From contig CAYXKF010000002.1 in assembly GCA_964464735.1 (NCBI GenBank), positions 3,833 to 67,832 on the forward strand: a stretch of 64,000 nucleotides of DNA. Reading direction: 5' to 3'. Every line of letters starts with the position of its first letter. The first letter of the stretch is position 1. Below, piece after piece: positions 9,878 to 39,411 of the stretch. The position numbers and the translations under genes were made by a program. The DNA is from an uncultured Candidatus Saccharibacteria bacterium (GTDB lineage Bacteria > Patescibacteriota > Minisyncoccia > Phycocordibacterales > UBA1006). A model generated the notes under the pieces. The model did not search any database and was not told the DNA's origin. It saw only the letters and a list, made by a program, of their open reading frames with translations.

Positions 9878-10552
9878 TTATTTATTGTTGCGCATCTCGT
9901 TTTCAAGCGAGTCGCCCTTGTAAATCCAAACCTTGATACCAATGTCGCCATAGGTCATGTGTGCCTTGTCAGTCGCGTAATCAATATCGGCGCGCATAAA
10001 CTGAAGCGGGATCCCGCCAAGCTTAAGCTCTTCTGAGCGTGCCATATCGGCACCGCCAAGACGACCAGTCATGTACAATTTAACACCCTTTACGCCACGA
10101 ACAGCCATAACTTTTTCGGCAGTCTGCTTCATCACAGGACGAAACGGCATGCGCTTTTCAAGAGCTTCAGCGATCATGTGCGCGACGATCTTTGCATTTG
10201 ATTCAGGTTCTGGAACATCAAGAATATCAATCTTAAGGTCTTGTGGAACTGGAATATCATGCTTCTTCATGAAAGCAAGGATGTCTTTTTTAAGTGCGTT
10301 TGCACCATCGCCACTGCGGCCAATGATCATACCTGGTCGAGAAGTCTTAATAAGGATACGTGTTGACTTTTGGTTGCGTTCGAATTCGATATCAGCAACA
10401 TAGTTTGCACGAAGCTTTTTTTCAAGGTATTCGCGCAATAAAACATCGCCTTTTAATAGGTCGTTGTACTTTTTACCTTTAGCAAACCATCGTGACTTCC
10501 AGTCGCGAAGGATGATAAGGCGTGCTGCATATGGATGGACAATCTTTGACAT
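9878..10552 (-). CDS. rpsC: 30S ribosomal protein S3
   Basis: KH-domain S3 similarity; 224 aa. Confidence 0.9.
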   Translation of the reverse strand: MSKIVHPYAARLIILRDWKSRWFAKGKKYNDLLKGDVLLREYLEKKLRANYVADIEFERNQKSTRILIKTSRPGMIIGRSGDGANALKKDILAFMKKHDIPVPQDLKIDILDVPEPESNAKIVAHMIAEALEKRMPFRPVMKQTAEKVMAVRGVKGVKLYMTGRLGGADMARSEELKLGGIPLQFMRADIDYATDKAHMTYGDIGIKVWIYKGDSLENEMRNNK

Positions 10553-10557
10553 AAAAA

Positions 10558-10992
10558 TTATTTAGCTGCTTTTTTAGTTCGCTTAGCAGGAGCCTTAGGG
10601 GCTGCCTCTTTTTTCGACGCGGTAACGGCTTTTACTGCCTTTGCCTTTGAAACCTTAGTGCCTTCGCGGACATCAGCAAGTACGACATGCACTTGCGCTG
10701 TTCGCTTGTTGATACGCGAAGCAGATCCGCGTGCGCGAGGCATAATGCGCTTCATGACAATTCCTTTGTTTACGGTAATTGACTTAACGACAAGCATATC
10801 AACTGGAACGCCTTGGTTATGCGAAGCATTTGCCGCAGCCGAATGAATCAGCTTGGCAATCGGATCGCTTGCACGCTTAACAGTAAAGCCTAATGCAATC
10901 AATGCATCAGGAACACGCTTACCCTTAACGGTATTTGCAACAACGCGGACTTTGCGTGGTGATTGTCGGTAGTTTTTAAGAAAAGCTTCCAT
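10558..10992 (-). CDS. rplV: 50S ribosomal protein L22 (with Lys/Ala-rich C-terminal tail)
   Basis: L22 core plus a 25-aa basic tail. Confidence 0.85.
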   Translation of the reverse strand: MEAFLKNYRQSPRKVRVVANTVKGKRVPDALIALGFTVKRASDPIAKLIHSAAANASHNQGVPVDMLVVKSITVNKGIVMKRIMPRARGSASRINKRTAQVHVVLADVREGTKVSKAKAVKAVTASKKEAAPKAPAKRTKKAAK

Positions 10993-11473: not shown

Positions 11474-12358
11474 TTACTTGCTACGTATGGCGTTTTTGCC
11501 ATCCAGGGCATATACGATGGTTCCGTCGGTTTGGGTCGAAATTGGCGTAATACCAAGTGCCTTCACAAAAGAGATAATTTCGGGTGCCGGATGATTATAT
11601 TTATTACCCCGCCCCGCCGACACAATGGCAACATCAGGCGACACTGCACGCAAAAACTCGACCGAACTGGATGTTTTTGACCCATGGTGGCCAAGTTTTA
11701 AAACATCAGCATCGACAACTGAAGGCTGGTACAGCGAAACTATTTGATGTTCATTTTGCCGCGACGCATCGCCGGTAAGCATGACTGAAGAATTACCATA
11801 CACCAGCTTTGCAACGATCGAATGCTCGTTGGTATCAGAAAATGCAGTGTCAATAAATGGATGCAGGATATCTAAATAAATTCCGCGCTGGTCATCAAGT
11901 ATCACGCGCATGCCCGCAAGCGCTTCAAGCTGTTCTTCAGTATCAAGTTCGGCAATTAAACTTGTCCAAGCACCCGAATCCCCTTTAATATTGCCTGGCT
12001 CCATAAAACGCTTGACCTTATAGTCGCGTAACACATCAACTAGGCCCGCGATATGATCACTATCAGGATGCGTTGCAATAACTAAATCGATCGAATGGTC
12101 AAAAAGCGGCATAGTGCCCCTCAGTCGTTGCAAGACCGATGCGTCAGGAACGCCATCAATTAAAATTTGCACTCCATTAGGTGCTTCGATAAATATTGCA
12201 TCGCCCTGCCCTATGTCAAAAAACGACACAGAGAGCATGTCGGATGAATTAAGTTTTTGATGCATACCAAAAGCAGCAATGCATGCGACTAGGGTAAAAA
12301 TAAAAAGAACAATCAGCGAACCGAACAGGACAAATGTTGTATTTATGACGCGAGCCAT
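11474..12358 (-). CDS. membrane-anchored MBL-fold metallo-hydrolase, ComEC C-terminal (beta-lactamase-like) domain homolog encoded as a stand-alone gene
   Basis: N-terminal TM anchor followed by the ComEC-type MBL motifs 'FFDIGQGDAIFIE', 'HPDSDHIAG' and 'LKLGHHGSKTSSS'. Confidence 0.7.
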   Translation of the reverse strand: MARVINTTFVLFGSLIVLFIFTLVACIAAFGMHQKLNSSDMLSVSFFDIGQGDAIFIEAPNGVQILIDGVPDASVLQRLRGTMPLFDHSIDLVIATHPDSDHIAGLVDVLRDYKVKRFMEPGNIKGDSGAWTSLIAELDTEEQLEALAGMRVILDDQRGIYLDILHPFIDTAFSDTNEHSIVAKLVYGNSSVMLTGDASRQNEHQIVSLYQPSVVDADVLKLGHHGSKTSSSVEFLRAVSPDVAIVSAGRGNKYNHPAPEIISFVKALGITPISTQTDGTIVYALDGKNAIRSK

Positions 12359-13089: not shown

Positions 13090-13671
13090 ATGATAACCGA
13101 AAAAACATTTTCATTCCCTTCCGACCTAAAAGGCATCTCACAAGAAACCATGGCCGAGCATCTAAAGCTCTATGCTGGTTATGTAAAACACGCAAATTTA
13201 GCATTGGCGCATATTGAAGAATTAAGTAAAGATGTTGAAAAAAATACCTACGAAATTGGCGAACTGTCACGCCGCTTTAGTTTTGAATACAATGGCATCA
13301 AGAACCACGAATATTATTTTGAGCAGCTTGAAAACGGTGCACACCCACTTACTACTGGCAGCGCACTTGAAATAAAGATCAATAACCAGTGGGGATCCTT
13401 CGACCAATGGCTTACCGCATTTAAACTTTTGACAAAAACCCGCGGTATCGGCTGGGCAGTTTTGTATTACGATAGAGACCGCGACATGCTTTTTAACGTC
13501 TGGGTCGACGAACAGCATCTGGGTCACCTAAATAGTTGCCAATTTATTTTTGGTATCGATATGTGGGAACATTCGTACGTAAAAGATTACCTTCCCAGCG
13601 GCAAGGCAAAATATATTGATGAATACATCGAACAAGTAAATTGGGGTGTTGTTGAAAAACGAATGGCGTAA
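13090..13671 (+). CDS. Fe/Mn superoxide dismutase family protein (divergent)
   Basis: The C-terminal 'GIDMWEHSYVKDY' matches the SOD 'D-x-WEH-x-Y-Y' metal-ligand motif, and the mid-protein 'NHEYYF' matches the 'NH-x-F/Y-W' His ligand motif. The N-terminal His pair is only partly conserved. Confidence 0.55.
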   Translation: MITEKTFSFPSDLKGISQETMAEHLKLYAGYVKHANLALAHIEELSKDVEKNTYEIGELSRRFSFEYNGIKNHEYYFEQLENGAHPLTTGSALEIKINNQWGSFDQWLTAFKLLTKTRGIGWAVLYYDRDRDMLFNVWVDEQHLGHLNSCQFIFGIDMWEHSYVKDYLPSGKAKYIDEYIEQVNWGVVEKRMA

Positions 13672-13672
13672 C

Positions 13673-13703
13673 AAAAAAGCCGGACCTATGGTCCGGCTTT
13701 TTT
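13673..13703. terminator. bidirectional rho-independent terminator between convergent genes
   Basis: aaaaaa-gccggacc-tat-ggtccggc-tttttt; overlaps the stop codon of the minus-strand gene. Confidence 0.7.
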
Positions 13704-14496
13704 AATGCTCATGCGGTGGACGCGTATGGCGCTTGACCCACATTGCCAAATGAATGACATAGATCGAAAGGAATATCAGTGCGACCGTAAGGACAATAAT
13801 TGCAATCAGCGCGAACTTGGTAAACGATATCAGCATCGCCATTTGCGTTACCAACTGCTGGAATGCCAGTTCAGTCGGTGTTGGGCCTTGTGGTATTTGT
13901 ACGACGGGGACAGTAAAGACACCTTCGCTCTCGGTTACAACCGGCTTTGTTTCTTCAACCGGTGTCGGCTTAGATGGCACAATAACCGCAGGCTTTAATG
14001 TGTAAGTTCCGGTACCATAGGTGCGCAATACATCGCTTCCGGTTCCATCGTTTGCCAATACTGCACCGCTCGTGAACGCCAATTCGGCAGTTCCTGTTTT
14101 TTTAACCCTAAAGGTAACTTTAAAAAGTTCGCCGCTGTTTCCCTGAAAACCACCAATTGCTACTCCTTCAAAGTTAATGACACCGTCAGACGTACGCACT
14201 GTTGGGCCCGCCGCGCCGGGTGGAAGCCACTGGTCGATGATCGAATTTGATTTTGATGACGAGACATATTCAAGCATCTCGCGCGGATAACGGATCGTGC
14301 CTGAAAAGGCATTTACTGACGCATCAGTACTTGAAGTAACAACCGAGACCGTAAACGTCTTTCCTACCTCGAAACTTCCTGATGACGGCGAAAAACCAAG
14401 CGATGCCGCAAAGGCGCTGCCTGGAAACAACAACACCGCTGCAACAAATCCAGCTGCGATTACTGACGATGAAAGAATGTTACGAAAGATTTTCAT
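13702..14496 (-). CDS. cohesin-like domain surface protein with signal peptide and C-terminal TM anchor
   Basis: Signal peptide (..GSAFA-ASL). A ~140-aa region follows the cohesin beta-sandwich spacing pattern (G.F.VG.TFTV.V....VNA..G.I.YP.E.LE ... GELFKVTFRVKKTGTAELAF). A Pro/Thr linker and C-terminal TM with a basic tail complete the protein. Confidence 0.55.
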   Translation of the reverse strand: MKIFRNILSSSVIAAGFVAAVLLFPGSAFAASLGFSPSSGSFEVGKTFTVSVVTSSTDASVNAFSGTIRYPREMLEYVSSSKSNSIIDQWLPPGAAGPTVRTSDGVINFEGVAIGGFQGNSGELFKVTFRVKKTGTAELAFTSGAVLANDGTGSDVLRTYGTGTYTLKPAVIVPSKPTPVEETKPVVTESEGVFTVPVVQIPQGPTPTELAFQQLVTQMAMLISFTKFALIAIIVLTVALIFLSIYVIHLAMWVKRHTRPPHEH

Positions 14497-15394
14497 GACG
14501 CTTCAGTGCTTTTCGTATTATCGCATAGGCGAACACGATTGCAACGGTAGCGAGCAACGCGATAACCGCAAACGATCGAATGCGAATTGCATTTGGAAGT
14601 TTGGTTTTAGTAACGGTCTGATTACCCGCTTGGTCGACTGCTTTTACCAACACCGAAAATGCACTATATGGCTGACGAAGTTTGTATGGACTTGTTGCGA
14701 CACGCCACGTAAGCAGATTTTCTTTTACTTCGAAGTGTTCGATGCCCGAACCCTGATCAGAGGCGTCAAACAAAACCGTAAGATGCCCATCAAAAAGATT
14801 TTCATCTTGCACTATGATCGGCATCATCATAACTGGCTGCACAGTATCATTGATTGCATATTCTTTAGGCACCAACTTTGCATCTGCGCGTATCGGAAAT
14901 GCAGCCATGCGCACAGTGGCAGCACTTCCAGCACCATCGTGCACCAACAACTGTGCATCCTTGATTTCAATCATTCCCGCGCCGGCGTTGGTTGCCTTAA
15001 GGATAAGCCGAACTACACGGCCCGGAAGAATATTTTTTGGCGACCGCGGATCAATGAGACCCGAAAACCCGCCAGGGACAATGCCTGAAAGCCTTACTGC
15101 ATTTCCCGACACACTGGCGCGTGAAATCCATGTAGGAACAATCGAATCATTATCAAGCGACCGTACAAAAGTAAAATTCTGAGGGATCGAAACTGCAAGC
15201 GAAATTGCATTAATATTTTGATTTTCAGGATCAAGCATGACATCAACAGCGAACTCTTGGCCAATGTGCACAGCTTGGGTATTTGACTGCAAAAAAAGTT
15301 CGGCCGCATGCACCCCCGGTGCTGCGAAAAACAGCGCAGCAATAACAAGCGTCATAAAAATGTATGCAGAAATTTTTATAAGGGTATGATTCAT
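14480..15394 (-). CDS. cohesin-like domain surface protein with signal anchor and C-terminal TM anchor
   Basis: After 'MNHTLIKISAYIFMTLVIAALFFAAPGVHA' the region 'HIGQEFAVDVMLDP..NINAISLAVSIP..FTFV ... GRVVRLILKATNAGAGMIEIKDAQLL' is cohesin-like. There is a C-terminal TM and KRHENLS tail. ATG at 15394 chosen over the longer ORF. Confidence 0.5.
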   Translation of the reverse strand: MNHTLIKISAYIFMTLVIAALFFAAPGVHAAELFLQSNTQAVHIGQEFAVDVMLDPENQNINAISLAVSIPQNFTFVRSLDNDSIVPTWISRASVSGNAVRLSGIVPGGFSGLIDPRSPKNILPGRVVRLILKATNAGAGMIEIKDAQLLVHDGAGSAATVRMAAFPIRADAKLVPKEYAINDTVQPVMMMPIIVQDENLFDGHLTVLFDASDQGSGIEHFEVKENLLTWRVATSPYKLRQPYSAFSVLVKAVDQAGNQTVTKTKLPNAIRIRSFAVIALLATVAIVFAYAIIRKALKRHENLS

Positions 15395-15398
15395 ATAA

Positions 15399-16298
15399 TT
15401 ATCCGGTCCAATAATATGCAAGGATCGAGAAATCAACCAGCGAAACACTGCCATTGTGATTAAGGTCGATATGCGCCGGCACACCTGGTTTATTGTACCA
15501 AAATGCCATGATTGAAAAATCGACAATATTCACCCTCCCGTCGCAATTAAGGTCGCCAACAAGCGCGGCGCATGAATCAAGAGGGAGTGTTTCGGTTCCT
15601 ACATTAAATTGTACGATTTTTCCGTACGGGCTTACCTCAGCCGGCAGTACCGTTTTTGATTTCGTCTCGTGTCCACCCACCTCAAGCGGTGAAGTATCAA
15701 GCGTCAGCAAATAAGCACCTGACGTGTCGGTAGGGACCGAATGGAATGTCTCGATGGCCGAATGCACCGAGATCACGACGCTTTGGTTCGGGACGCTTTG
15801 ACCAAAAATAGTCAGGTTATCGCCTTGTTTGACCGTCGACTTATCAACTGCAATGGTTGGCGATAAAAATATCCCCGAAACGTCGGTGGTAACATTACTG
15901 GTTACCATGATCGAGAATGAGATACTTTCAGAATTGCGACCATTGGCATCAGTACTGTATACCGAAAAATTGTAATTATGTTCGGATAAATCAGAAAGCG
16001 TCACGTCAAAATGCGCATCGGGTCCACTAATTGTGGTAATTGCAACTTGACCGTTTTTTAAGATGCTTACTTTTGAAAAAGGATACGCACGGCCAGAAAA
16101 ATTCACGCTGGCGTTCCCACCCGAACCTTGGCCCGCACCTCCCCCTCCTCCTCCGCCACCGCCCCCACCTCCGGATCCAGGGCTATTTACCTGCGCAGAA
16201 ATTGAAAGGTTTTGCAAATCAGTAATGGCCAAGGTGCCGTGTGCGTACACGAAAGTGCCTATCACCAGAAGCGTAGTAAGAAAAAATACCGGCTTCAT
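15399..16298 (-). CDS. secreted protein with 14-residue poly-Gly tract, Ig-like middle region and C-terminal type-I dockerin domain
   Basis: Signal peptide. G14 is encoded by a (GGN)14 repeat. The C-terminus has two canonical Ca-binding dockerin loops, 'DLNCDGRVNIVD' and 'DLNHNGSVSLVD', each followed by 'FSI.A..W'. Confidence 0.7.
   Translation of the reverse strand: MKPVFFLTTLLVIGTFVYAHGTLAITDLQNLSISAQVNSPGSGGGGGGGGGGGGAGQGSGGNASVNFSGRAYPFSKVSILKNGQVAITTISGPDAHFDVTLSDLSEHNYNFSVYSTDANGRNSESISFSIMVTSNVTTDVSGIFLSPTIAVDKSTVKQGDNLTIFGQSVPNQSVVISVHSAIETFHSVPTDTSGAYLLTLDTSPLEVGGHETKSKTVLPAEVSPYGKIVQFNVGTETLPLDSCAALVGDLNCDGRVNIVDFSIMAFWYNKPGVPAHIDLNHNGSVSLVDFSILAYYWTG
16140..16185. repeat. simple sequence repeat (GGN)14 / C-rich homopolymeric tract inside the dockerin-protein gene
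   Basis: cctccccctcctcctccgccaccgcccccacctcc on the plus strand. Confidence 0.8.
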
Positions 16299-16307
16299 AA
16301 TAGTGCC

Positions 16308-17327
16308 TTACACTTGAGGCGGAAGATCGCCCGACTGCATCAAAGATTGTCGTGCCTGATTGATCACCCAGCGATTATAACGCCTAATGAGTGTTCGCAA
16401 GATCGTAAACAAAAGAACGATTGCAATAATAAGCACAAGCAATAATTGCCATGGGAAAACATACACCGCGGTATGTGCGGTCAGTTCACCCTGCACTTCG
16501 CTATACGTTACCAAAAGTTTTGCGCTATATCGCCCAAATGCAAAATGCTTCCACTGGTAGCCAACCGTGTTAAAAAATCCGGTAGTTGATGCTTCGCGTG
16601 CATGCTTTTTGCTATCCCATGCAACTTCAAATTTGCGAATGGTGCCAAGCGGCAACACATTTCCTTGTCCTGGGTTTGCATCAAGTTTTTGCGAAGTGAT
16701 GCCAATCATATTTTTTACGGTAATTGTCCCAGTTGGGCTTATGCGGTCACTTCCGCCATTTTGGAAACGGTAGGTAAAGTTAACTGGAAGCGAAGTGTAC
16801 AAACGCTTTTCAGGTTTAAAATCAAGCAGCGATGCACCTTCGGCAATCTCGCCATTAACGCGAAGCAGCACCAGCGTACCTACTTTATAGCCAATCGAAA
16901 CTTGTCCATTATTTTGCGCTTCTGGCGCAGTCGTGCTTAAAAAAACGCCGGCGAAGTATCCTCCAGCACGCGCGTCGGCCGGTACTGGAATCACGATGCG
17001 CACCACTTGCTGCTCGCCCGCGGCAAGCGAAATACTGGTCGGTGCTTGGATCCACGATGCAAGGCCGGTCGTACTTTCGACAAAGTTTGGAGTGCCCGAT
17101 TCGCCCTGCGCCTCAAAGTTCGCCGTTGAAAAATAAAATGTCGCCGGAGCATCTTGGTCGTTGTATATCAACATGTCCCCTGTCACCACAGTGCCTGGGT
17201 CGCCAGCGACCTCGATCTTGCTTGATGTCGTTAATGCCTTAGCCGCGTACGGAAAAAATACGCACAGCATAAGCAAAGCGACAAGAATAGTTATTGCGTA
17301 TCGATATCGATAAGTCATGCTAAGCAT
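16308..17327 (-). CDS. cell-surface protein with signal peptide and C-terminal TM anchor plus basic tail (CscA/DUF916-like topology)
   Basis: N-terminal hydrophobic signal, a ~270-aa extracytoplasmic region, then a TM 'WQLLLVLIIAIVLLFTIL' followed by RTLIRRYNRW. The topology matches the membrane-anchoring partner of WxL-type surface complexes. Confidence 0.4.
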   Translation of the reverse strand: MLSMTYRYRYAITILVALLMLCVFFPYAAKALTTSSKIEVAGDPGTVVTGDMLIYNDQDAPATFYFSTANFEAQGESGTPNFVESTTGLASWIQAPTSISLAAGEQQVVRIVIPVPADARAGGYFAGVFLSTTAPEAQNNGQVSIGYKVGTLVLLRVNGEIAEGASLLDFKPEKRLYTSLPVNFTYRFQNGGSDRISPTGTITVKNMIGITSQKLDANPGQGNVLPLGTIRKFEVAWDSKKHAREASTTGFFNTVGYQWKHFAFGRYSAKLLVTYSEVQGELTAHTAVYVFPWQLLLVLIIAIVLLFTILRTLIRRYNRWVINQARQSLMQSGDLPPQV

Positions 17328-17336
17328 GGAATGCTA

Positions 17337-18392
17337 TTAAAAGTTTGCCGTCGCGACGTACGTAAGGGCTGCGGTATAACTTCCGGCTTCGGTCGTTGGT
17401 GCAATATTGGCAATATAGTGAAGCGAATAAGTTGACGTACCGGTTGCACTTGAACCGGTTGCAAACGTTGCTGCAGTGCTGGCATTGGCATCATAACCAA
17501 AGGCTGGTGTCGCGTTGTCAGAATAGGTTGCATCAATTGAGGCACCGGTACCACCTGATACCGTCGCATAAATACCAAATTGTTCGCTGCCTGTTGTTGA
17601 AGCCGCAGGGGTTGAACCGTTAGCAGTAATGGTATTAAGCCCCGAGGTAAGCGTCGCGCCTTGGACAGTAATAGTATATCCCGAAGCACCGTTGGTTGCT
17701 ACGCCAAGGGTATGTGCAACAGTATCTGAACCGGTACCATTAGTGTCGCCTGTCGCATAGCGCGCAGCAGATGTTGAAAGCGTACCAAACCCAATCGAGT
17801 TATCCGAAATAGTAAATGTCAGTGTTTGTCCAACCGTTGCCGAAACCGCAACCACGTCATCGTCGACAATTGTTGTTGTGATTGTTCCAGAATCAGCAAA
17901 CGTACCGCCGCCAATGGTCACCGTATAACTTCCGGCAGTCGTTGGATTAGTAATTTGCTGGTCGCCAGTTGCGCCTTGCGTTGCATTAGTACCAATTTTA
18001 ATGCGCACCACCGAACCAGCGGCAATCGCGACGTTGCCGTTAGTAAACGTAATGACCGTCGATGATGTGCGCACTACACCCCATGTTGCACCCGACGGCG
18101 ACGCAGCAAGCGCCAACTGTACGCCATCATCAAGCAAATCAATATCAGTATCATCAAGTGCTCCGGGGATCGAATAGTCTGACTGAAAAGTAAGCACCAT
18201 GGTTTGCCCCGACGTAAGGCCGGTTGGTGTCGTAAAGGTAATATCGTGGTCTGAAAGCGTATTTTTTTTAACTGTTGACATCGTATCAGAAAGCGATGTT
18301 AGCGAAGCTGCGCTTACAAACGAAAACGGATACAACAAAATACTTGCAAAGATTGCAACTGCCGAGATTTTTTTAAACATGGTGTAGATCAT
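17337..18392 (-). CDS. secreted Thr/Gly/Ser-rich surface protein sharing a ~170-aa C-terminal domain with the adjacent giant protein
   Basis: Signal peptide. The C-terminal 'TLTFTISDNSIGFGTLS...SGYTITVQGATLTSG.NTI...GSEQFG...IANIAPTTEAGSYTA.LTYV.TANF' is nearly collinear with the last 170 aa of ORF 18487..24681. Confidence 0.6.
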   Translation of the reverse strand: MIYTMFKKISAVAIFASILLYPFSFVSAASLTSLSDTMSTVKKNTLSDHDITFTTPTGLTSGQTMVLTFQSDYSIPGALDDTDIDLLDDGVQLALAASPSGATWGVVRTSSTVITFTNGNVAIAAGSVVRIKIGTNATQGATGDQQITNPTTAGSYTVTIGGGTFADSGTITTTIVDDDVVAVSATVGQTLTFTISDNSIGFGTLSTSAARYATGDTNGTGSDTVAHTLGVATNGASGYTITVQGATLTSGLNTITANGSTPAASTTGSEQFGIYATVSGGTGASIDATYSDNATPAFGYDANASTAATFATGSSATGTSTYSLHYIANIAPTTEAGSYTAALTYVATANF

Positions 18393-18486: not shown

Positions 18487-21400
18487 TTAAAAGTTTGCCG
18501 TAACTGTATAAATAATGTTTGTTGTGTATGTTCCAGCTTCGGTGGTAGGTGCAATGTTGGCGATTGAACGGGCAGAATACGTTGTTGTCGCCCCATCCCC
18601 GCTTGCGGCACTTGCAATCGCACTTGGTGTTGTTGCATTGGCGGCGTACGCAAAACCCGATGCTGCGTATGGAGACAAGACTGCACCTATTCCTCCCGAT
18701 GCCGTAAAGCGAAAACCGAATTGTTCGCTACCGGTCGACGAAGCGGTGTTTGTCCCACCAATTGCATTAATAGTATTACTTCCCGACGTCAGCGTCGCAC
18801 CTCGAATGCTTAATGTGTACCCGGATGTTGCGTTGGTTGCGACACTAATAGTATGCGCTTCGGTTTCAGAACTTGCACCACTAGTATCCCCCGTTGCAAA
18901 ACGGGCAGTCGAAGATGAAAGAGTTCCAAAGCCAATCGAATTATCCGAGATCGAAAACGACAATGTTTGCGCACTTGCAAACACCCAACACGAGTCGTTG
19001 TTACCCGAATTAATTGAGTTTGTTGTATTGATTGTAATGGCCCCAACTTCACATCCGCCGTCTTGCACGTCTGCATAATCAACCGACGCGGTGCCGGTTG
19101 GATTAAACTGCCACTTGGTTCCGCTTGAAACCGAGCGCAGTCGGATGCGGTTACCCGCGCTTCCGGCAACGGTAAATAAATTTGTTACTGCATAAATAGG
19201 CACTCCTGAAACGGCAAATTGAACTTCTTTGGCAGCGGTATGTGTAATAGTTAGGTTATAGAATGTTGTTGAACCTGTTACTACGGCAGTTGTGGCACTA
19301 TTAAGAATCACAGTCGAGGTTCCTTGCGTAAAAGTGCCAGCATTCGTCCAGTTGCCAGCAACCGTAATCGTTGATGCATTGGCCGTCAGCGTTGCCCCCG
19401 ACTGAATATCAATTGCACCCGCATTAAGGGCATAGTTCGTTGCGGTAGTAGTAAGCGTGTTGGCGGCAATACTTACGGTTCCTGTTGCTGTCGTCGTACC
19501 ATTTAAAGATTTTGTACCACTGGCTCCTGATATGGTTAATCCAACATATGAGATCGTACTGTCGACATTCTGAGTTGTACCGTTATACTCAACCACCGAT
19601 CCTGCGCCCATCGTTCGAGTTTCGAAGCTTTGATACGTGCCTGTAAAGTTCGCTGCACCTGCCCGCAAGGTGGCATTAGTCACTGTAAGAGTGTTAGTCC
19701 CATTTCCAATAAACGAGGACGTGGCAGCGTTTAGTATGCCGTTGGTAACAGTAAGATCATGGTTTACCGTTAAGTTACCTGCACCTGGGGTTTTAATCCC
19801 TGTTCCTGACGAAATAACATCATAAAAAACTCCTTGGATGTTTCCATCCCCGTTGCCCGAAAATGTAACCTCGGATGTTCCCGGATTCATAACCCCGTTC
19901 GAGTTTTTAAGAAAGATGTTTCCACTTGTACCAGTAACATTTATATTTGAGTCGTTAAGCGTCATAATCGCACTTGCCGTGTTTGCAATTAATACCTTTC
20001 CTACGCTCAAAGCATAGTTATTATTTGTTGTATCAAACGTACCGAGCGTAACCGTCAGGGTTCCTGCAGGGTCAATAGTTGTCGAGCCCTCTAATACATA
20101 GGTTTCAGAAGTGTTATTAAGTGTCAAGTTATAGTATGTAACATCATCTGAAATCGTGGTATTACCAGAAGCATTGTTTCCCATAAGCGTAACAGTCGAT
20201 GTGCCGCGGTCGAATGTGCCGGCGTTGGTAAGTACCGTACCCGTCGTACCATTAAGGGTAACACTCGATGAGCTTGCACTAAAAGTTCCACTTGCTCCAA
20301 TATCAAGTCGACCGAATGCACAGGCCTGCCCGCCGGTTGCAAGCGTTCCGTTACTGACGGAAAGTACATTAGAAACTGTCAGGGTGATACCAGCCGTTTT
20401 TGTTCCTGTACCTGATAGAGTCAAATTATAGAAAGTAATGGTAGTACCTGAAGTCAGTATCTGAACATCACCATTTCCAACAATATCAACGGTTGAGGAT
20501 CCGGCAGTAAATATGGCAGCAACCGGCTTGGTAATATAGATTCCCGATGTTGCAGTCAATGTAATCGTTGATCCGCGGGCATTCACAATAGCTGAAGCAC
20601 TGTTTGCCCAAACTATTTTCCCTACCGAAAGTGCGTAATTGTTGGTTGTGGTATCAAGAGTCCCTGCACTAATAGTAAGCGTACCACCGGCATTTCCTGT
20701 AGTTGCCCCTTCAAGCTCGTATGTTTCAGAACTATTATTGATAGTAAGGTTATAATACGGTATATCTTTATTTATAATGGTATTACCTGATCCATTATTT
20801 CCCGTATAGGTAGTAGTAGATGTTCCCATATTAAATGTTCCAGCAGTGGATAATACAGGATCACCACTAGTCCCTGAAAGGGTTAACGTGGACGCATTCA
20901 AGGTTAATGTTCCCCCAGATTGCACATCAATAATTCCTGCGGCTAATCCGAAGTTTGACGCGGTCGTGCTGAGTGTTCCGTTAGTGAGAGAAAAAGTATT
21001 CGATACTGTTGTCGCAGCCCCTAGCGTTTTAGTTCCTGTACCCGATATGGTCATATTATAAAACGTCGGCGGAGTGTTGGTCGTCAACGCGGCATCGCCG
21101 TTTCCGCTGAAATTTACAGTCGAGGTACCCGCAGTTACCGTCGAAGATGAACCTTTGGTAAAAAGCGTTCCGGATGTTGCGGTAATATTAATCGTTGATG
21201 CGTTAAACAGCATGATGGCACTTGCGCTGTTGGCTGTGATAATTTTACCTGTTGTGAGTGTATAGTTGGAACTTGTTGTATCAAGTGTTCCCAAAGATAC
21301 GGTCAATGTTCCCGCGGCATTCACCGTCGTTGCACCTTCAAGTACGAATGTTTCAGAGGTGTTGTTAACCGTAAGGTTATAATACGGAATTCCCTGACTT

Positions 21401-24400
21401 ATAATCGTGTTCCCTGATGCATTGTTCGCCGTATAGGATACGGTCGACGTTCCCATGTTTAATGTTCCTGCCGTCGAATCAACCGGATCACCGTCAGTGG
21501 TTGTAAACCCGATAGCAGACGCGTTTGCCGTAAATGTTCCTCCTGATTGCACATCAAGGTTTCCAACTGAAAGGCTAAGATTGCTGGCACTCGTACTAAA
21601 CGTACCATTGGTAATCGAAAGCGTTCCCGCGGCATTCAGTGTCAGCGCAAGACCAAGCGTTTTGGTTCCGGTTCCAGACGATGTCATGTTATAGAATGTT
21701 GGCGACGAGGTAGCGTTTATGGTCGCGTCTCCGTTACCAGTAAGCGCAACGGTTGATGTTCCGGCGTTGAAAACAGCACTTGATGCTTTTGTAAATAACG
21801 TTACCCCTGTCCCAGTGAGGTTAATTGTCGAAGCATTGGCCGTTAAAATACACCCCGAGTTATTAGATGCTAAGTTAATTCTTCCCGCGTTGAGCGTATA
21901 GTTACTGTTTGTCGTATCCAGAGTACCCAAGGTAATCGTAAGCACCCCGGCGGCGTTGATCGTCGTTGTCCCGTTGAGTACGAATGTTTCAGAGGTGTTG
22001 TTAACCGTAAGGTTATAATACGAGACGTTGCTTGGTATCGTCGTGTTTCCTGCCGCATTGTTTCCTGTAAGCGCAATCGTTGATGTTCCCGCCGTAAACA
22101 TGCCGCCAGCCGTAAGTGTAAGTGGTGTTCCAGTTGTACCGGTAAGGGTGATCGTAGAAGCGTTTGCAGTAAGTGTTCCCGTTGATCCGATGGTAAGCGT
22201 CGTGCCTGTAAGTGAGCGCGATGTACCGTTTGAAGTATTTAATATACCGTTTACCGTAATTGTTCCCAGCGCCGGAGAGTTCACGTTCATCGTTACGGTA
22301 TCGGTCGCAAGAATCGTGATGTTGTCCCCCGCCGCAGGAACGCCACCCGTACCTGCACATCCGCTCCAGGTTGCACCGGTGTTCCATGAACCACCACCCG
22401 TTCCGTTTGTCGTACACGTCGCGTCGGACGCAACTTGCCATTCGCGCGCTTCGTGAAAAATATCTTCGCCGTCTTCAAAAAATGTCAGCGGTCCTAGTAA
22501 GTAAAACTCAGGGCTTACGTCAGGCGCGTCAAAATAGTACCCTAAAACGGTTTCAACACCCGCTTCAAGCGAAACATTCCACGTAATTTTTTGCACACCG
22601 TATTCGTAATCAACTGATTCATATGCCTGGCTATGCTGCGGTTGCGTAATGTCAAAACTTTCCGGAACAATCTCAACGACTTCGCCCTCCCAATCAGTTT
22701 CCGAAGTAACATACAGTGTTACTGGGTATGGCGCGCCAGGATAAATGCGCGACGGCCCGGTACGGCGTACATCGAATTTTGGACGTGATGCAATTTTAAA
22801 ATAATCGGTAATCGATTTCTCACCGTTGTCGGTCATCGCAGTTAGATGCATAGAATACGTGCCGACCGCACTTGGCAAATTAAGATGCGCATAGTAATCG
22901 GGTGTCATGATAACGTTATCAATCTGACAGTCAGTGTTTTTTACAATTGTCCCATTGTCAGTTGAAAGTGATTGGTTATAGCCACCAGGACCAGTAACCC
23001 TAAGTGTAAGGTCAGCATTACAAATAGTATGACCATTGTCATCAAGGACACCCATCTGCAAGTATGCATTATCGCCCGGCACATATATCGATTTACTGGT
23101 GTTGATCGAAAGAACCCCCCACGTGAAATCCTGTTCGGAAATAATGATCATCTGCGGCGTCATCAAAGACACCTTAAGCGTATAGCGCCCGGGCTTAAAT
23201 GCCCGTTCGGGTTGATGGATTGTAATTTTTTGTTTTTCGACGCCGTTTTCGACAATAGTTTCGACCGTTACAACAATATCAGTCACGTTACCGTCACGAT
23301 CAAGCACGACAGCTTCGACCGTTTGGGGTTCGTCGGCTTCGACAACTGGCACATCTAAAGTCGAGACGATTTCTTCGGTGATTGCGGCCGTAGCATCAGT
23401 AAGTGTTTCGACAATCGGCGCAATAACTTCGGCAGCTTGTTCAACAATTGGGCTTGGCGTTTCAGCATCAAGCGTCGGCACGATTTCTGATTCGGGTGCC
23501 AACACTCCAGTAATATCCAAAATTACCTCGGCTTTATTTTCAGCAACCAACTCGGTCACTTGTTCAATTGAAAGTTTTGGATCCTCGACAATAAATGTCG
23601 GCAAAGCATTAGGTGCAAAATCAGTGTCACCGTCGACGATCGAAAGCGATTCGTCGGTAATCATGACGGTCGGCACAACTGCGGGATCTTCGGCTTTATG
23701 ATATTGCGCTTCGATACTTACGCTCTCTAGATACGCCGTTAATTTTTCTGGAGCTTCGTCGGCAATAGTAATTGCAATGCGCAGTTGCGAAACATCAGCC
23801 CACGTTGAAACATCAGGATCAGTGATTTCAAAACGCGCATTGTGCCAATCACTGGTGCTAATATCTGCAAGCGCTTTCCATGTCTCGCCGTCAACCGAAT
23901 ACACGATTTTTGCAAGTGGTGCATCCGTCGCAATATCCGCGTCATTTATTTCGCCATTTGTTTCAGCTTCTTCGGCATACACTTTTGCAATCAGTGAATC
24001 AAAAAATTGCATTGCGGTCGATTCGCCATCATCAGTCGACGTATCAGAATCTTCGGAAGAAGATTCAGAAACTTGCGACTCGTTTTCAACCAGCTCGTCA
24101 TGTGATTCTTCTTCCTGTACGGCTGTCTCTTCAACAACATTTTCTTGCTCTTCGACAATAGGCTCGTTTTGATCTTCGTCTGGTAGTGGAGCCAGTGTTT
24201 GTTCTTCAACCGAAGATTCACCTGAAATCTCTGGGTCGTCCTGACTTTCAGGCGCCTCATTGTCTTGTGTTTGATTATCGGTTGGCGATGATACTTTCCA
24301 GCGAAGCGTCAAAAAGAATTTTTCAGGCGAAACGCCTTCGGGTATTTCGCCATTAAAGTCGCGACATGTCATTTCGTTCCCTGCTTTTCCTTCGGCGCTG

Positions 24401-24681
24401 TTTTCGGACGTAATAGCACCTTCATCATCCGGATCCCCGACCGCACGATCGGCATTGTTCCACGAGCCAATACAAGTATCCGGGCGAAAGACGACAATAT
24501 CAGCACGCGTATTATGAAAAGGACTTAATACAAAAAGCGCAATGATGGTTACAGCCGTCAGTATAATTTTTGATGCATGCCAAAAACCACGAGGCAACGC
24601 GCTGACATGGTCACGAATTGGTTGTAAAGATGCGGTTGATTTTACAGGCAACATACGCACGCGATCCCAAAAGCGCATCAT
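18487..24681 (-). CDS. giant (2064 aa) surface protein
   Basis: Direct reading of the translation shows an N-terminal signal anchor and then an acidic Glu/Asp-rich segment. The central part carries at least four tandem ~210-aa repeats (YYNLTVNNTSETFVL.G.TT.NAAG.LT..LGTLDTT..NY.L..G...). These are rich in T/G/N/S and look like beta-helix adhesin repeats. The C-terminus is a domain shared with the adjacent 351-aa protein. Confidence 0.65.
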   Translation of the reverse strand: MMRFWDRVRMLPVKSTASLQPIRDHVSALPRGFWHASKIILTAVTIIALFVLSPFHNTRADIVVFRPDTCIGSWNNADRAVGDPDDEGAITSENSAEGKAGNEMTCRDFNGEIPEGVSPEKFFLTLRWKVSSPTDNQTQDNEAPESQDDPEISGESSVEEQTLAPLPDEDQNEPIVEEQENVVEETAVQEEESHDELVENESQVSESSSEDSDTSTDDGESTAMQFFDSLIAKVYAEEAETNGEINDADIATDAPLAKIVYSVDGETWKALADISTSDWHNARFEITDPDVSTWADVSQLRIAITIADEAPEKLTAYLESVSIEAQYHKAEDPAVVPTVMITDESLSIVDGDTDFAPNALPTFIVEDPKLSIEQVTELVAENKAEVILDITGVLAPESEIVPTLDAETPSPIVEQAAEVIAPIVETLTDATAAITEEIVSTLDVPVVEADEPQTVEAVVLDRDGNVTDIVVTVETIVENGVEKQKITIHQPERAFKPGRYTLKVSLMTPQMIIISEQDFTWGVLSINTSKSIYVPGDNAYLQMGVLDDNGHTICNADLTLRVTGPGGYNQSLSTDNGTIVKNTDCQIDNVIMTPDYYAHLNLPSAVGTYSMHLTAMTDNGEKSITDYFKIASRPKFDVRRTGPSRIYPGAPYPVTLYVTSETDWEGEVVEIVPESFDITQPQHSQAYESVDYEYGVQKITWNVSLEAGVETVLGYYFDAPDVSPEFYLLGPLTFFEDGEDIFHEAREWQVASDATCTTNGTGGGSWNTGATWSGCAGTGGVPAAGDNITILATDTVTMNVNSPALGTITVNGILNTSNGTSRSLTGTTLTIGSTGTLTANASTITLTGTTGTPLTLTAGGMFTAGTSTIALTGNNAAGNTTIPSNVSYYNLTVNNTSETFVLNGTTTINAAGVLTITLGTLDTTNSNYTLNAGRINLASNNSGCILTANASTINLTGTGVTLFTKASSAVFNAGTSTVALTGNGDATINATSSPTFYNMTSSGTGTKTLGLALTLNAAGTLSITNGTFSTSASNLSLSVGNLDVQSGGTFTANASAIGFTTTDGDPVDSTAGTLNMGTSTVSYTANNASGNTIISQGIPYYNLTVNNTSETFVLEGATTVNAAGTLTVSLGTLDTTSSNYTLTTGKIITANSASAIMLFNASTINITATSGTLFTKGSSSTVTAGTSTVNFSGNGDAALTTNTPPTFYNMTISGTGTKTLGAATTVSNTFSLTNGTLSTTASNFGLAAGIIDVQSGGTLTLNASTLTLSGTSGDPVLSTAGTFNMGTSTTTYTGNNGSGNTIINKDIPYYNLTINNSSETYELEGATTGNAGGTLTISAGTLDTTTNNYALSVGKIVWANSASAIVNARGSTITLTATSGIYITKPVAAIFTAGSSTVDIVGNGDVQILTSGTTITFYNLTLSGTGTKTAGITLTVSNVLSVSNGTLATGGQACAFGRLDIGASGTFSASSSSVTLNGTTGTVLTNAGTFDRGTSTVTLMGNNASGNTTISDDVTYYNLTLNNTSETYVLEGSTTIDPAGTLTVTLGTFDTTNNNYALSVGKVLIANTASAIMTLNDSNINVTGTSGNIFLKNSNGVMNPGTSEVTFSGNGDGNIQGVFYDVISSGTGIKTPGAGNLTVNHDLTVTNGILNAATSSFIGNGTNTLTVTNATLRAGAANFTGTYQSFETRTMGAGSVVEYNGTTQNVDSTISYVGLTISGASGTKSLNGTTTATGTVSIAANTLTTTATNYALNAGAIDIQSGATLTANASTITVAGNWTNAGTFTQGTSTVILNSATTAVVTGSTTFYNLTITHTAAKEVQFAVSGVPIYAVTNLFTVAGSAGNRIRLRSVSSGTKWQFNPTGTASVDYADVQDGGCEVGAITINTTNSINSGNNDSCWVFASAQTLSFSISDNSIGFGTLSSSTARFATGDTSGASSETEAHTISVATNATSGYTLSIRGATLTSGSNTINAIGGTNTASSTGSEQFGFRFTASGGIGAVLSPYAASGFAYAANATTPSAIASAASGDGATTTYSARSIANIAPTTEAGTYTTNIIYTVTANF
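19600..22400. repeat. intragenic tandem DNA repeats (~630-bp period, at least 4 copies, long stretches identical) inside the giant surface-protein gene
   Basis: For example 'gaatgtttcagaggtgttgttaaccgtaaggttataatacg' recurs at about 21346 and 21976, and related copies appear near 20110 and 20745. Confidence 0.7.
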
Positions 24682-34456: not shown

Positions 34457-37201
34457 CTAGTAACCTGCCTTCTTGTATTTAGCCATAACTTCAGATTCGA
34501 CTTCATCACGCGGACGACCGTACTTAAGGTATGATAACTGCTTGATGTTCTCGACTTGCTCTTTGTTTGATGGCGGATAGTTTTCGGTAACCATATTAAA
34601 CGGTTTTACCGGCTGGCCGCCTGCCAGCATCGACAAATACGCATTGCGGTTATCCAACTTGGTGATATCTTCCCAACTAAACGTCGGCTTCACGCGCGGT
34701 TCAAGCGCTTTTGCATCTTCGGAACTGATGCGAAAGATCGCCATTGAGCCCACGTTACCCAATACCGCGTCGCGGATGTTGTCTTTAAGCTGCGCCATAA
34801 ACTGGTGCGCCATGTTAATCGACAGACGATATTTGCGGGCTTCAGACAAGATGCTTGAGATTGCTGGTGTTGTCACGTTTTGAAACTCGTCGATATACAA
34901 GAAAAAGTCTTCGAACTTTTTACCGTAACTGTCTACGCGCGAAAGCGCGGCCATTTGGATTTTTCCGACGATCACCATACCAATTAAGTTTGCATTGAGT
35001 TCACCTAGGCGGCCCTTAGAAAGATTTACCAAAAGGATCTTTTTATTGTCCATTACTTCGCGCATATTAAAGGCAGATTTTTCCTGCAGCACAACCGGAC
35101 GCATGATTTCGTTTGAAATAAATGGGTCAAACTTTGATGAAATGTACGGCACAAAGTTCGACAGCGATTGTTCGCCCGAGGTTTCCTCGGCGCTTTTCCA
35201 AAATTGGTGCACGATCGGGTTGGTACAGTGCGACAATTTCATATCGCGAAATTCTTTTTCGGCAATCACGCGTGTGATTTCAAGCAGTGTGCAGCCCGAT
35301 TCAGGATGCGACATAACCGCCATTGCGGCATTTTTAAAGTACTGCTGAAACATCGCGCCTCCCTGCTGCTCCATGTTAAACAACTGATTAAAGATACCCA
35401 TCAGCTCGTCGATGACCAGCGATTTTTGTTCGGGACGGTCGGCATCAAATTCAAGCATGTTTAAGCCAATCGGCCGCGGCGTGTAGGCCGGGTCAAAGTA
35501 AATGACATCATCCATACGCTCGGGCGGAATAAACGACAAGATGGTTTGAATGTCAGTACCGTGTGGGTCGATGTAACACACCCCATGCCCGGCTTTAATA
35601 TCTTGCGCGATCATGTTCATAAAGATACCCGTCTTACCAGTACCAGTTTGACCTATTACATAAAAGTGGCGCATGCGGTCTTCGGGCGCAAAGTGAATTT
35701 TGGTAACTTTGTTTTGGTACACGTTTTCGCCCAAAATAATCCCTTGGTCGGATAGTTCGATCGGCGGCGGCGCAACTGCAGCCTTTGACTGTTTAAGTTC
35801 GGCTTGGTCTTCGACCGTTGCCGGAAAGTGAAACAATGTTGCCAGTTCTTTAAAATTTAATGTAAGCCGTTCGCGGCGGTTGTATAGCCGGTATGAAAAG
35901 CTGTGCAAAAAGTCCTGCAGTCCCGATTTGCTTGGCTCGGTAAAATGCAGCCCCGTTGATGTTGTGTCGGTAAACTGGTTAAAGGCCGACTTCATGTCAT
36001 CCAAAATTTGCCGCGCTCGCGCTTCGGTTTGCGCTGATGCAACAATGCGCACGTGTGATTCGATAATGGTCGATTTTAACTTCTCACTGATGCTGGTAAC
36101 GTAATCTTGGTGCGCTTCGGGTTTTTCTTTTTTACTGTCGTCAAACAAGATCGAACCGACGTCGGACAAAAACTGGGTATGCAATTGGGTTACGTATGCA
36201 ATTGCCTTTTTAAGCTTTTTGCCTTTTTTAACTTCGTCCAAAATCTGACCATATTCTTTAATCAAAGTCTGCCCGACCGGCATTACAACAAACTGTATTG
36301 CGGCACCTTCGCCCTTTTTCTCGATCTTCGAAAACGCGTTCAAAAGCACATGCAATGGGTCATGCTCGATATGGTCATATGTCTTAAGTTGCAGCACGTC
36401 GGATACCGTTGCCTGCGCATACGCCCCGACCGATGCGCCGCCTTCGCAAAAAATATTATAGTCATCAAACACTTCTGTGATTTTTACGTCGTGATACAAC
36501 GCATTCACCTGCTTTTCAAAAAGACTGACCTTATGGTTTGGCACGCATGCATAAAACACAATGTGCGGTGAACTATTAGCCATTGCAATTTCAAGGGTAA
36601 AATAATTACGGTCCCGATTGTTCGCATCGCCCGCCACCGCAAGCATGCCGGCATAAAATTGCTCCATCAATTGGATCAATTCTTTATAGCCTTGCTTTTT
36701 GTCTTCGCTTGGGCGAGGCAGCGTCACTTCGAACAAACGCATATCGATTGCCTTGTATAATTCTTGACTTGGTGAAAGCCCTGGCAGCTTATGCTGCGAG
36801 ACTAGGTATTCTGACAAAAAGCGCTGAAAGTCGTCATCAAGGTGCGGATCTTGCATGTGTGTCACCACTTCAAGCGCACTTTTGACACCATGTTCCATCA
36901 TGATGCCGTACAGTTCGCCAATGCGATCGTCGTGCGTTTCAGGCGACAACCGAAGCGTCAGGCTGTGTTCTTCGACGGGCATGCTTTTATGCAGCGCATC
37001 AAGCACTTCGGCTTTTTTTGCCGACTTGTATGACTTAATAAGTTCAAGCGCCATTTTATTTTCTTCGTCCTGGGTCGGCTCGCGATGCTCGACTTTAGTA
37101 AAGTCTTCATGCTTTTTTACCATTTGTGTTCGCAAAAATTCCAGCTCGTCAGCCGGAGACTTTGGCTTTTCGGGCATCCCCGCTTTTGAAGGGTTAAACA
37201 T
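34457..37201 (-). CDS. large soluble P-loop NTPase of the VirB4/VirD4/HerA (DUF87, FtsK-HerA superfamily) type
   Basis: Walker A 'VIGQTGTGKTG' at about residue 505, Walker B 'FFLYIDEFQN' at about residue 765, then 'NMAHQF'. There are no TM segments and a ~450-aa non-ATPase N-terminal region. Confidence 0.55.
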   Translation of the reverse strand: MFNPSKAGMPEKPKSPADELEFLRTQMVKKHEDFTKVEHREPTQDEENKMALELIKSYKSAKKAEVLDALHKSMPVEEHSLTLRLSPETHDDRIGELYGIMMEHGVKSALEVVTHMQDPHLDDDFQRFLSEYLVSQHKLPGLSPSQELYKAIDMRLFEVTLPRPSEDKKQGYKELIQLMEQFYAGMLAVAGDANNRDRNYFTLEIAMANSSPHIVFYACVPNHKVSLFEKQVNALYHDVKITEVFDDYNIFCEGGASVGAYAQATVSDVLQLKTYDHIEHDPLHVLLNAFSKIEKKGEGAAIQFVVMPVGQTLIKEYGQILDEVKKGKKLKKAIAYVTQLHTQFLSDVGSILFDDSKKEKPEAHQDYVTSISEKLKSTIIESHVRIVASAQTEARARQILDDMKSAFNQFTDTTSTGLHFTEPSKSGLQDFLHSFSYRLYNRRERLTLNFKELATLFHFPATVEDQAELKQSKAAVAPPPIELSDQGIILGENVYQNKVTKIHFAPEDRMRHFYVIGQTGTGKTGIFMNMIAQDIKAGHGVCYIDPHGTDIQTILSFIPPERMDDVIYFDPAYTPRPIGLNMLEFDADRPEQKSLVIDELMGIFNQLFNMEQQGGAMFQQYFKNAAMAVMSHPESGCTLLEITRVIAEKEFRDMKLSHCTNPIVHQFWKSAEETSGEQSLSNFVPYISSKFDPFISNEIMRPVVLQEKSAFNMREVMDNKKILLVNLSKGRLGELNANLIGMVIVGKIQMAALSRVDSYGKKFEDFFLYIDEFQNVTTPAISSILSEARKYRLSINMAHQFMAQLKDNIRDAVLGNVGSMAIFRISSEDAKALEPRVKPTFSWEDITKLDNRNAYLSMLAGGQPVKPFNMVTENYPPSNKEQVENIKQLSYLKYGRPRDEVESEVMAKYKKAGY

Positions 37202-39214: not shown

Positions 39215-39411
39215 ATAATAATAAAAAAAACTAATAAAAAATGTCGCGACTTTTACCATCGCCATTGTATGCTTTTACTTTTACATACACAATTTTTTTC
39301 TGGGGAAAACTAACAAAAAATCTTCGCAGTAATGTGCGAAGATTTTTATTTATTAAAACTTTAAACGCCATTACCAAACGACATGTCGTTTTAATATTTA
39401 CATAGAATAAA

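Follow-up and report, generated by a model that had tools for sequence, protein, structure and literature searches.

The window analysed here, a stretch of 64 kb from an uncultured Candidatus Saccharibacteria bacterium (contig CAYXKF010000002.1), carries on its minus strand a cassette of six genes arranged head to tail, with a ComEC gene upstream (Table 1). In the order of transcription, these genes code for a secreted giant, a pilin, and four proteins referred to as P4, P3, P2, and P1, of which P3 ends in a dockerin and P2 and P1 are cohesin proteins. The genes are tightly packed, the intergenic gaps amounting to 33 nucleotides (nt) between the ComEC gene and the giant, and then to 94, 9, 9, 4, and -17 nt from the giant through P1. 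P3, P2, and P1 most likely serve to anchor in the membrane a Pam-type pilus, a fibre built by donor-strand exchange, in this bacterium of the Candidate Phyla Radiation (CPR, or Patescibacteria). The initial annotation of the stretch had described an isolated, minimal cohesin-dockerin set tied to ComEC; the trio is instead the conserved 3' module of the six-gene pilus cassette, and both the pilus context and the copy of the pilin donor strand carried by P3 had been missed.

Table 1. Genes of the cassette, their parts and the two flanking genes (positions in the 64-kb window; aa, amino acids; Ig, immunoglobulin).
Feature	Position	Strand	Basis or remark
P3, 299 aa, proposed adaptor/terminator	15399-16298	-	coordinates checked by translation
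P3, signal peptide	16227-16298	-	
P3, donor-strand mimic	16179-16217	-	LQNLSISAQVNSP
P3, poly-Gly tether	16113-16178	-	
P3, Ig-like domain 1	15867-16112	-	
P3, Ig-like domain 2	15594-15866	-	
P3, dockerin	15402-15572	-	
P3, Ca2+ loop	15519-15554	-	DLNCDGRVNIVD
P3, Ca2+ loop	15432-15467	-	DLNHNGSVSLVD
P2, 304 aa, membrane anchor 1	14480-15394	-	AlphaFold, hhalign, Foldseek
P2, signal peptide	15305-15394	-	
P2, cohesin	14864-15304	-	
P2, Ig-like domain	14600-14833	-	
P2, membrane helix	14504-14593	-	
P1, 264 aa, membrane anchor 2	13702-14496	-	Pfam Cohesin, hydropathy
P1, signal peptide		-	
P1, cohesin	13990-14406	-	
P1, Pro/Thr-rich stalk	13855-13989	-	
P1, membrane helix	13732-13854	-	
P4, 339 aa, secreted, beta-rich	16308-17327	-	
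P4, C-terminal membrane helix	16380-16475	-	hydropathy
Pilin, Pam-type shaft, 351 aa	17337-18392	-	signal peptide and N-terminal domain ahead of the linker
Pilin, linker	17823-17861	-	DDVVAVSATVGQT
Pilin, acceptor domain	17340-17798	-	
Giant, secreted, 2064 aa, proposed tip adhesin	18487-24681	-	
Giant, C-terminal acceptor domain	18490-18939	-	last ~150 residues
ComEC gene, 495 aa	24715-26202	-	Pfam: DUF4131 and Competence membrane domain
Fe/Mn superoxide dismutase gene	13090-13671	+	opposite strand, closes the gene string directly after P1

The cohesin and dockerin domains encoded by the trio are bona fide. P3 scores 25.6 bits against the Pfam family Dockerin_1 (PF00404, cut-off 22.9), also matches Pfam Big_6, and contains two 12-residue Ca2+ loops, the first of those listed in Table 1 being followed by FSIMAFWY and the second by FSILAYYW. 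The AlphaFold model of the protein (predicted local distance difference test, pLDDT, 87.7) consists of a strand at residues 32-37, a disordered Gly run, two beta domains, and the two dockerin helices, one after each loop (residues 258-266 and 287-298); the glycine-rich tether, 22 residues long, lies between the N-terminal strand and the Ig-like domains. Among 68 homologues, D249, D260, and D289 of the dockerin are invariant, and the dockerin sequence is strongly conserved and specific to the family (VNLVDFSI[ML]A[YF]YW). No dockerin loop was found outside P3 with either a generic loop regular expression or the hidden Markov model (HMM) of the family, both run in six frames so as to cover the whole translation of the window. 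The earlier statement that a single gene bears a dockerin with textbook Ca2+ loops is thereby borne out. No catalytic domain was detected in P3 by Pfam, AlphaFold, or Foldseek, and no membrane helix by hydropathy. Within the dockerin, the two halves have almost the same sequence (VNIVDFSIMAFWY versus VSLVDFSILAYYW). In cellulosomal dockerins, near-identical halves go with a dual binding mode, and by analogy the single dockerin of P3 may be able to serve the cohesin of either P2 or P1. As a separate observation, two cysteines, C243 and C252, flank the start of the first Ca2+ loop with a C-x8-C spacing (SCAALVGDLNCDG, 15545-15572); this pair, which recurs in many P3 homologues (C...GDxNCD), may be a stabilising disulfide.

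On the receiving side, P1 matches Pfam Cohesin (PF00963) with 34.1 bits and an E-value of 3.7e-8 (cut-off 24.1), and P2 is a divergent cohesin. The open reading frame (ORF) listed for P2 at 14480-15526 was over-extended, its true start being at 15394 (MNHTLIK...), in agreement with the public gene call P0156. P2 itself has no Pfam Cohesin match and one of the 16 members of its family reaches PF00963, at 4.3e-7; its family aligns with that of P1 in hhalign with a probability of 100% (E 1.7e-41), and the only matches of its profile in the PDB are cohesins from Ruminococcus flavefaciens (E 7.5e-4). In the AlphaFold model of P2, computed with 120 homologues (pLDDT 95.7, predicted template modelling score, pTM, 0.84), a nine-stranded sandwich at residues 31-177 (pLDDT >94) is followed by an Ig-like domain at residues 188-265 and by a membrane helix at 268-303. 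Nearly all of the first 33 Foldseek matches of this model in the PDB are cohesins, headed by 2w1n (E 3.8e-10), the tandem of a cohesin and a fibronectin type III (FnIII) domain from Clostridium perfringens GH84C, and comparison with the non-cellulosomal cohesin of Archaeoglobus fulgidus (2xdh) gives a template modelling (TM) score of 0.80 and a root-mean-square deviation of 2.7 A. The possibility that these regions would merely model as generic Ig or fibronectin folds is hence answered by the nine-stranded cohesin fold of P2. The positions conserved in P2 lie mostly on strands 3, 5, and 6 and in the loop after strand 8, many of them being Gly or Pro; their apparent clustering on the 8-3-6-5 sheet, which binds the dockerin in known complexes, is suggestive only. 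P1 has its C-terminal hydrophobic helix at residues 215-255 and P2 at residues 269-297, and both proteins begin with a signal peptide, so that the two cohesin-like proteins with C-terminal membrane anchors of the initial annotation are recovered by Pfam, hhalign, AlphaFold, Foldseek, and hydropathy. No other cohesin than those of P1 and P2 was found in the window.

The two cohesin proteins do not vary in the same way. The length of P1 homologues lies anywhere between 189 and 891 aa, the stalk being the part that varies, whereas most P2-like proteins are close to 300 aa, which suggests a long and a short anchor. A natural fusion (P0028, 247 aa, encoded at 10001-10744 of the related locus L005) joins a P1-type cohesin to a dockerin with almost no linker, and ties the two families functionally; the dockerin in this fusion is more generic than that of P3, and the protein could in principle form head-to-tail chains. 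P2 also gives an OmpL47-type match of 28.5 bits, under the cut-off of that family, and its Ig-like second domain (profile at about 180-263, motif SGIDHYEV...VKAVDxAGN) occurs in 10 to 31 tandem copies in giant proteins from metagenomes, such as P0161 (4269 aa), P0162, P0164, P0165, and others.

Upstream of the trio, the pilus genes are bona fide members of the Pam type. Pam pili were described in the CPR bacterium Ca. Mycosynbacter amalyticus, from which the CPR_Pam_pilin_C family originates; their fibre starts at PamT, a tip protein without donor strand, and the proposed terminator and anchor, PamR, is described as a single chain in which an N-terminal strand is joined to two FnIII domains and a membrane helix (Troman et al., bioRxiv 10.64898/2026.03.03.709456). 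Against this family (NCBIfam NF058581, cut-off 55), the pilin of the window scores 77.1 bits and the C-terminal 199 aa of the giant 75.7 bits. The linker of the pilin, DDVVAVSATV at residues 178-187, shows the highest conservation within the alignment of pilins, with positions that are invariant (V181, A185, T186, and V187) or nearly so. The giant, which also has a G8 domain at residues 778-848, has orthologues at the same position in the related loci L006, L010, L013, and L018. Neither the pilin nor the giant, both of which end in ...TANF, carries an LPXTG signal or a hydrophobic tail, no sortase gene having been searched for. As regards P4, its C-terminal membrane helix and its position make it a candidate membrane-anchored chaperone of the PamC/PamD type. 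Three of the six members of its family match PF06030 (WxLIP_PGBD, the WxL-interacting protein family; best E 6.3e-5), these matches, that of the P4 of the window included, being sub-threshold, and no sequence match was found for P4 in the PDB or NCBIfam.

What P3 and the pilin have in common is a short strand. The mature N-terminus of P3, LSISAQV, resembles the sequence VAVSATV of the pilin linker, DDVVAVSATVGQ standing immediately ahead of the pilin C domain. Of the 120 best P3 homologues, 65 show the pattern [VLI]x[IV][ST]AxV followed by poly-Gly straight after the signal peptide. When a position-specific scoring matrix (PSSM) derived solely from the N-termini of P3 homologues was run over all ORFs, its best matches outside the P3 proteins were exactly the pilin linkers. 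The top site is the linker preceding the C domain in 12 out of 12 shaft pilins, and it ends 9 or 10 residues ahead of the C-domain model in ten of them and abuts or slightly overlaps it in the two others; in the window, the pilin linker ranks third among 56,924 six-frame positions. No such strand site was found by the PSSM in the giants or in the other minor proteins with a Pam domain, as is expected of tip subunits. The type of N-terminus carried by P3 goes, moreover, with the nature of the genes upstream: a P4-like gene lies directly upstream of 18 out of 21 strand-type P3 genes compared to 2 out of 28 with the STNF type (described below) or another N-terminal type (Fisher 1.8e-8), and a Pam C domain is found upstream of 10 out of 14 strand-type P3 genes compared to none of the 33 of all other types, including the Cys-rich one (Fisher 1.9e-7). 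The similarity between P3 and the pilin is limited to this short strand, since hhalign of the whole proteins gave no real match and homology between them was rejected; a homology between the pilin and cohesin families was discarded as well, the hhalign alignment covering the signal-peptide region alone (39% probability).

The conservation of the module was evaluated by comparing 93 related loci with tblastn and HMM searches, 13 of them coming from exact-protein look-ups and a genome scan, and 80 from a metagenome scan. The complete order giant-pilin-P4-P3-P2-P1 is present in L006, L007, L010, L013, and L018. In the 69 loci that extend at least 2 kb past the P3 gene, a P2-like gene comes next in 65, a P1-like gene is present in 68, and both follow in order in 64. 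Judged from gene order, this near-obligate synteny fits the earlier proposal that the cohesins would dock one secreted dockerin protein at the membrane. The term "ComEC-led" used in the initial annotation is literally correct for the window, where the ComEC gene precedes the giant on the same strand, but ComEC was not seen beside the cassette in those related loci of which the gene calls were looked at. The trio is not rare. At least 849 P3 homologues, typically 50-60% identical over the Ig-Ig-dockerin core, occur across lineages, a check of the first 600 metagenome stretches confirmed a P3-like gene in 559, and P2-like cluster representatives number 7215 at E<=1e-3 and 1952 at E<=1e-30; among the 150 P2-like matches listed, most are about 300 aa long and aligned end to end. 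The closest species-representative locus, L006, belongs to a metagenome-assembled genome (MAG) labelled Ca. Saccharibacteria and is 77-85% identical, followed by Nomurabacteria and Kaiserbacteria. All the labelled relatives are CPR bacteria, namely Ca. Saccharibacteria (as labelled for the MAG), Nomurabacteria, Kaiserbacteria, Wolfebacteria, and Minisyncoccia.

On these grounds, the following assembly can be proposed. The tip of the fibre would be the giant, the C-terminal Pam domain of which would provide an open acceptor groove. The shaft would consist of polymerised pilins, the linker of each one filling the groove of the subunit ahead, and P4 would probably assist this process as a PamC/PamD-like chaperone. 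P3 would then end the fibre, its linker-mimicking N-terminus filling the groove of the last pilin, and its poly-Gly tether and two Ig-like domains would serve as a spacer. At the other end of P3, the internally symmetric, Ca2+-binding dockerin would bind the cohesin of P2, of P1, or of both, each of these proteins sitting in the cytoplasmic membrane with its C-terminal helix. What the data show are the domains and folds, the membrane helices, the conserved gene order, and the strand mimicry with its association with Pam pilins; what we infer are the binding of the cohesin-dockerin pair, the insertion of the strand, the chaperone role of P4, the equivalence with PamR, and which cohesin is used at what time. 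P3 with P2 and P1 would thereby be the equivalent of a PamR divided into two parts, adaptor and anchors, held together by a Ca2+-dependent, non-covalent lock. On balance, the evidence tips slightly in favour of P3 capping the base of the pilus by donor-strand insertion while its dockerin plugs into P2 or P1.

The likeness to the described Pam system (NF058581, NF058579) covers several parts of this scheme: both have a pilin with a Pam acceptor domain and a conserved linker, a tip protein (in the present case a proposed one) with an acceptor domain and no donor strand, membrane-anchored accessory proteins, and a proposed terminator in which an N-terminal strand precedes two Ig/FnIII domains, and in both there is no usher and the pilin has no sortase signal. 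The systems differ in that the proposed tip here is a giant whereas PamT is small, and in that one shaft pilin is encoded here whereas PamA, PamB, and PamE are found there. A further departure from the described Pam operon is that the proposed terminator has a dockerin in place of the membrane helix with which PamR is described to end, the helices being found here on the two separate cohesin proteins. P3 has an N-terminal strand and tandem Ig/FnIII domains, as described for PamR, but another C-terminal end; it is not assigned as a member of the PamR type, even though it would work like PamR in the proposed assembly. The words "cohesin" and "dockerin" are absent from the preprint on the Pam pilus (bioRxiv 10.64898/2026.03.03.709456), and no paper tying cohesin or dockerin to CPR pili was found in the literature.

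Several other systems share single elements with the locus. In chaperone-usher (Pap/Fim) pili, subunits are likewise linked by donor-strand exchange and growth is ended by a terminator subunit, such as PapH, but here there is neither outer membrane, nor usher, nor detectable homology, and anchoring would be achieved by a cohesin-dockerin pair. The toxin and glycosidase complexes of C. perfringens (2w1n, 2jh2, 2vo8) and the A. fulgidus cohesin 2xdh are single non-cellulosomal cohesins and the best structural matches of P2, 2w1n sharing even its tandem of a cohesin and an FnIII-type domain. These pairs join enzymes or have no known role, whereas dedicated membrane-anchored cohesin proteins of about 300 aa are encoded here, together with a dockerin on a non-enzymatic Ig-domain protein within a pilus cassette. 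In Clostridium thermocellum, OlpA/OlpC and SdbA (3ul4 and 4dh2, also among the Foldseek matches of P2) are cell-bound cohesins that capture a dockerin and thereby tether an extracellular assembly; such anchoring scaffoldins attach enzyme complexes to the wall of cellulolytic Firmicutes by surface-layer homology domains, whereas the anchor here is a membrane helix, without enzymes or carbohydrate-binding modules. Finally, the WxL/CscA-type loci of Firmicutes (PF06030) resemble the cassette by the weak match of the P4 family and by the C-terminal membrane helix, but the match of the P4 of the window stays below threshold and no WxL domains were found.

Several data weigh against the proposed pilus anchor. 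In the monomer model of P3, the N-terminal strand has a pLDDT of about 76, i.e., a moderate confidence, and the Foldseek matches of P3 are tandem Ig/FnIII proteins with RbmA at rank 26, a likeness that, judged from the model, is a generic one between such tandems. P4 has, at the sequence level, no demonstrable similarity to chaperones of the PapD/FimC type, its hhalign comparison with FimC, a weak one, yielding a probability of 0.1%, and the NCBIfam Pam models match none of P1 to P4, even at an E-value of 10. The presence of two different cohesin proteins for one dockerin is unexplained. In addition, the trio is also found without detectable Pam pilins or P4, and about 60% of the loci surveyed have a P3 with another N-terminal module, which indicates that anchoring a pilus is not the only role of the module.

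These last data also fit a possible, if rather unlikely, explanation in which P2 and P1 hold P3 for stand-alone surface display, P3 itself being the product that acts, be it as adhesin, as spacer, or as a component of the envelope, and the pilus genes the mere neighbourhood of a surface-protein island. The trio is indeed kept with many different upstream genes, the additional FnIII or other N-terminal domains of P3 in those loci could be functional heads, and the Ig-Ig-dockerin core remains 50-60% identical across lineages. What such a display module leaves unexplained is that the strand of P3 copies the pilin linker, that this type of strand is restricted to loci that also have Pam pilins and P4, and that spacers of 4-9 nt separate these genes from the pilus genes. 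The two distinct cohesins facing one local dockerin could also reflect a general docking station, in which the membrane cohesins would take up several dockerin proteins encoded elsewhere and P3 would be just the local cargo. Only 64 kb of the genome are visible, and other CPR bacteria have dockerin-bearing envelope proteins, such as SEML1_0315 of Southlakia, which is essential according to transposon sequencing (PMC10633639). Yet no second dockerin is present in the window, and both the one-to-one synteny in 64 of 69 loci and the family-specific dockerin motif point to a dedicated pair, which makes this explanation improbable. SEML1_0315 itself was considered as an orthologue of P3 and rejected on account of its length of 927 aa and its different gene context (PMC10633639).

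Since the Pam model includes membrane-anchored beta-sandwich chaperones and the cassette encodes three membrane-anchored proteins of this kind, P2 and P1 might alternatively be factors of pilus assembly that act as a PamC/PamD-like chaperone or platform and happen to have a cohesin-like sandwich, the dockerin of P3 then being a Ca2+-stabilised terminal domain. This we regard as very improbable, the fold of P2 being specific to cohesins rather than to PapD-like chaperones, P2 and P1 being kept in loci without Pam pilins, and a cohesin always occurring alongside a dockerin, which is most simply read as a binding pair. The domain names alone would speak for a miniature cellulosome acting as a scaffold for polysaccharide-degrading enzymes. 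This last reading is effectively refuted for the locus: P3 is not catalytic, each protein has a single cohesin, the window has a single dockerin, and no glycoside hydrolase or carbohydrate-binding module occurs in the ORFs scanned, so that the combination of a multi-cohesin scaffoldin, dockerin-tagged glycoside hydrolases, and a carbohydrate-binding module by which cellulosomes are recognised is not found here. The earlier remark that no glycoside hydrolases lie nearby agrees with this, none having been detected among the neighbours or in ten further large ORFs.

Beyond the strand type, P3 occurs in variants that carry either a Cys-rich module or a domain of about 60 aa ('STNF...GFLYFP') with FnIII, and that are encoded behind other large secreted proteins. 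A broader proposal, which we hold at somewhat less than even credence, is that the cohesin-dockerin pair universally anchors surface filaments to the membrane, by non-covalent binding, across much of the CPR/Patescibacteria: P3 would bear interchangeable N-terminal connectors (strand mimic, Cys-rich module, or STNF domain with FnIII) matched to the fibre or giant encoded upstream, P2 and P1 would receive this adaptor, and in the present case a Pam-type pilus would be ended and anchored. CPR bacteria are believed to live in attachment to host cells, little is known of how they build and hold their surface fibres, and the description of the Pam pilus dates only from 2026. If the pilus anchor proposed here is correct, this would be the first case of a pilus with a demonstrated cohesin-dockerin anchor, in a split version of PamR, and it would explain how a pilus can be anchored without usher, sortase, or membrane helix on the terminator. 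Cohesin-dockerin pairs outside cellulosomes, seen across the domains of life but lacking an assigned function, would also gain a concrete role. As the N-terminus of the adaptor would report which fibre is served, the very widespread three-gene module, with its thousands of protein clusters, could help to locate the surface fibres of CPR lineages that have not been cultured. The interest of the locus lies both in this unexpected lock as an anchor of pili or fibres and in the very wide distribution of the module.

Regarding the variants themselves, the STNF-type P3 ('SSTNFxLENP...GFLYFP', about 60 aa, with FnIII) is found in about 40% of the loci, without Pam pilins or P4 (L001, L002, L004, L008, L009, L011, and many of L015-L094), and collagen-repeat or other giant proteins are encoded upstream of it. 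A small protein of about 120-170 aa with one N-terminal membrane segment, a conserved motif (LPxxETPTxATVSDPxxLKDQPFFxxAxKGDKVLIY), and no family assignment is also encoded there (L002, 6817-7248; L004, 7600-8112; L009, 3496-3963 and 3963-4334; L011, 9538-10011). The Cys-rich P3, with CGNGxxExGEQCD... after the signal peptide, occurs in L003, L025, L029, L030, L040, L048, L071, and others, and is usually preceded by a short P4-like membrane-anchored protein of about 200 aa; L003 has in addition small pilin-like proteins ending in ...TLTVLGES. Such loci may represent a third type of fibre on the same anchor.

As regards the surroundings of the cassette, a scan for promoters and terminators between 13.0 and 26.6 kb yielded counts at the level of shuffled sequence, and a phage origin was discarded, no match being found in PHROGs. 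The exact sequences of P3 and of the pilin are absent from a collection of 15 billion proteins in which P1, P2, P4, and RecJ of the same NCBI contig are present; the public calls for these two genes probably differ. ComEC is seemingly encoded by two genes on the minus strand, some 12 kb from each other, that of Table 1 and a separate one at 11474-12358, coding for a metallo-beta-lactamase-domain protein of 294 aa with an N-terminal hydrophobic segment; between them lie the pilus cassette, the superoxide dismutase gene, and a cytidylate-kinase-like gene. Further along the minus strand, an ORF of 914 aa (34457-37201) has no Pfam match at E<=1e-5. Finally, three large proteins encoded on the same strand (37295-39265, 40401-42422, and 60365-62350) carry a PG_binding_1 domain, the last of them together with NHL repeats and a cadherin domain, and may be further envelope or host-interaction proteins.

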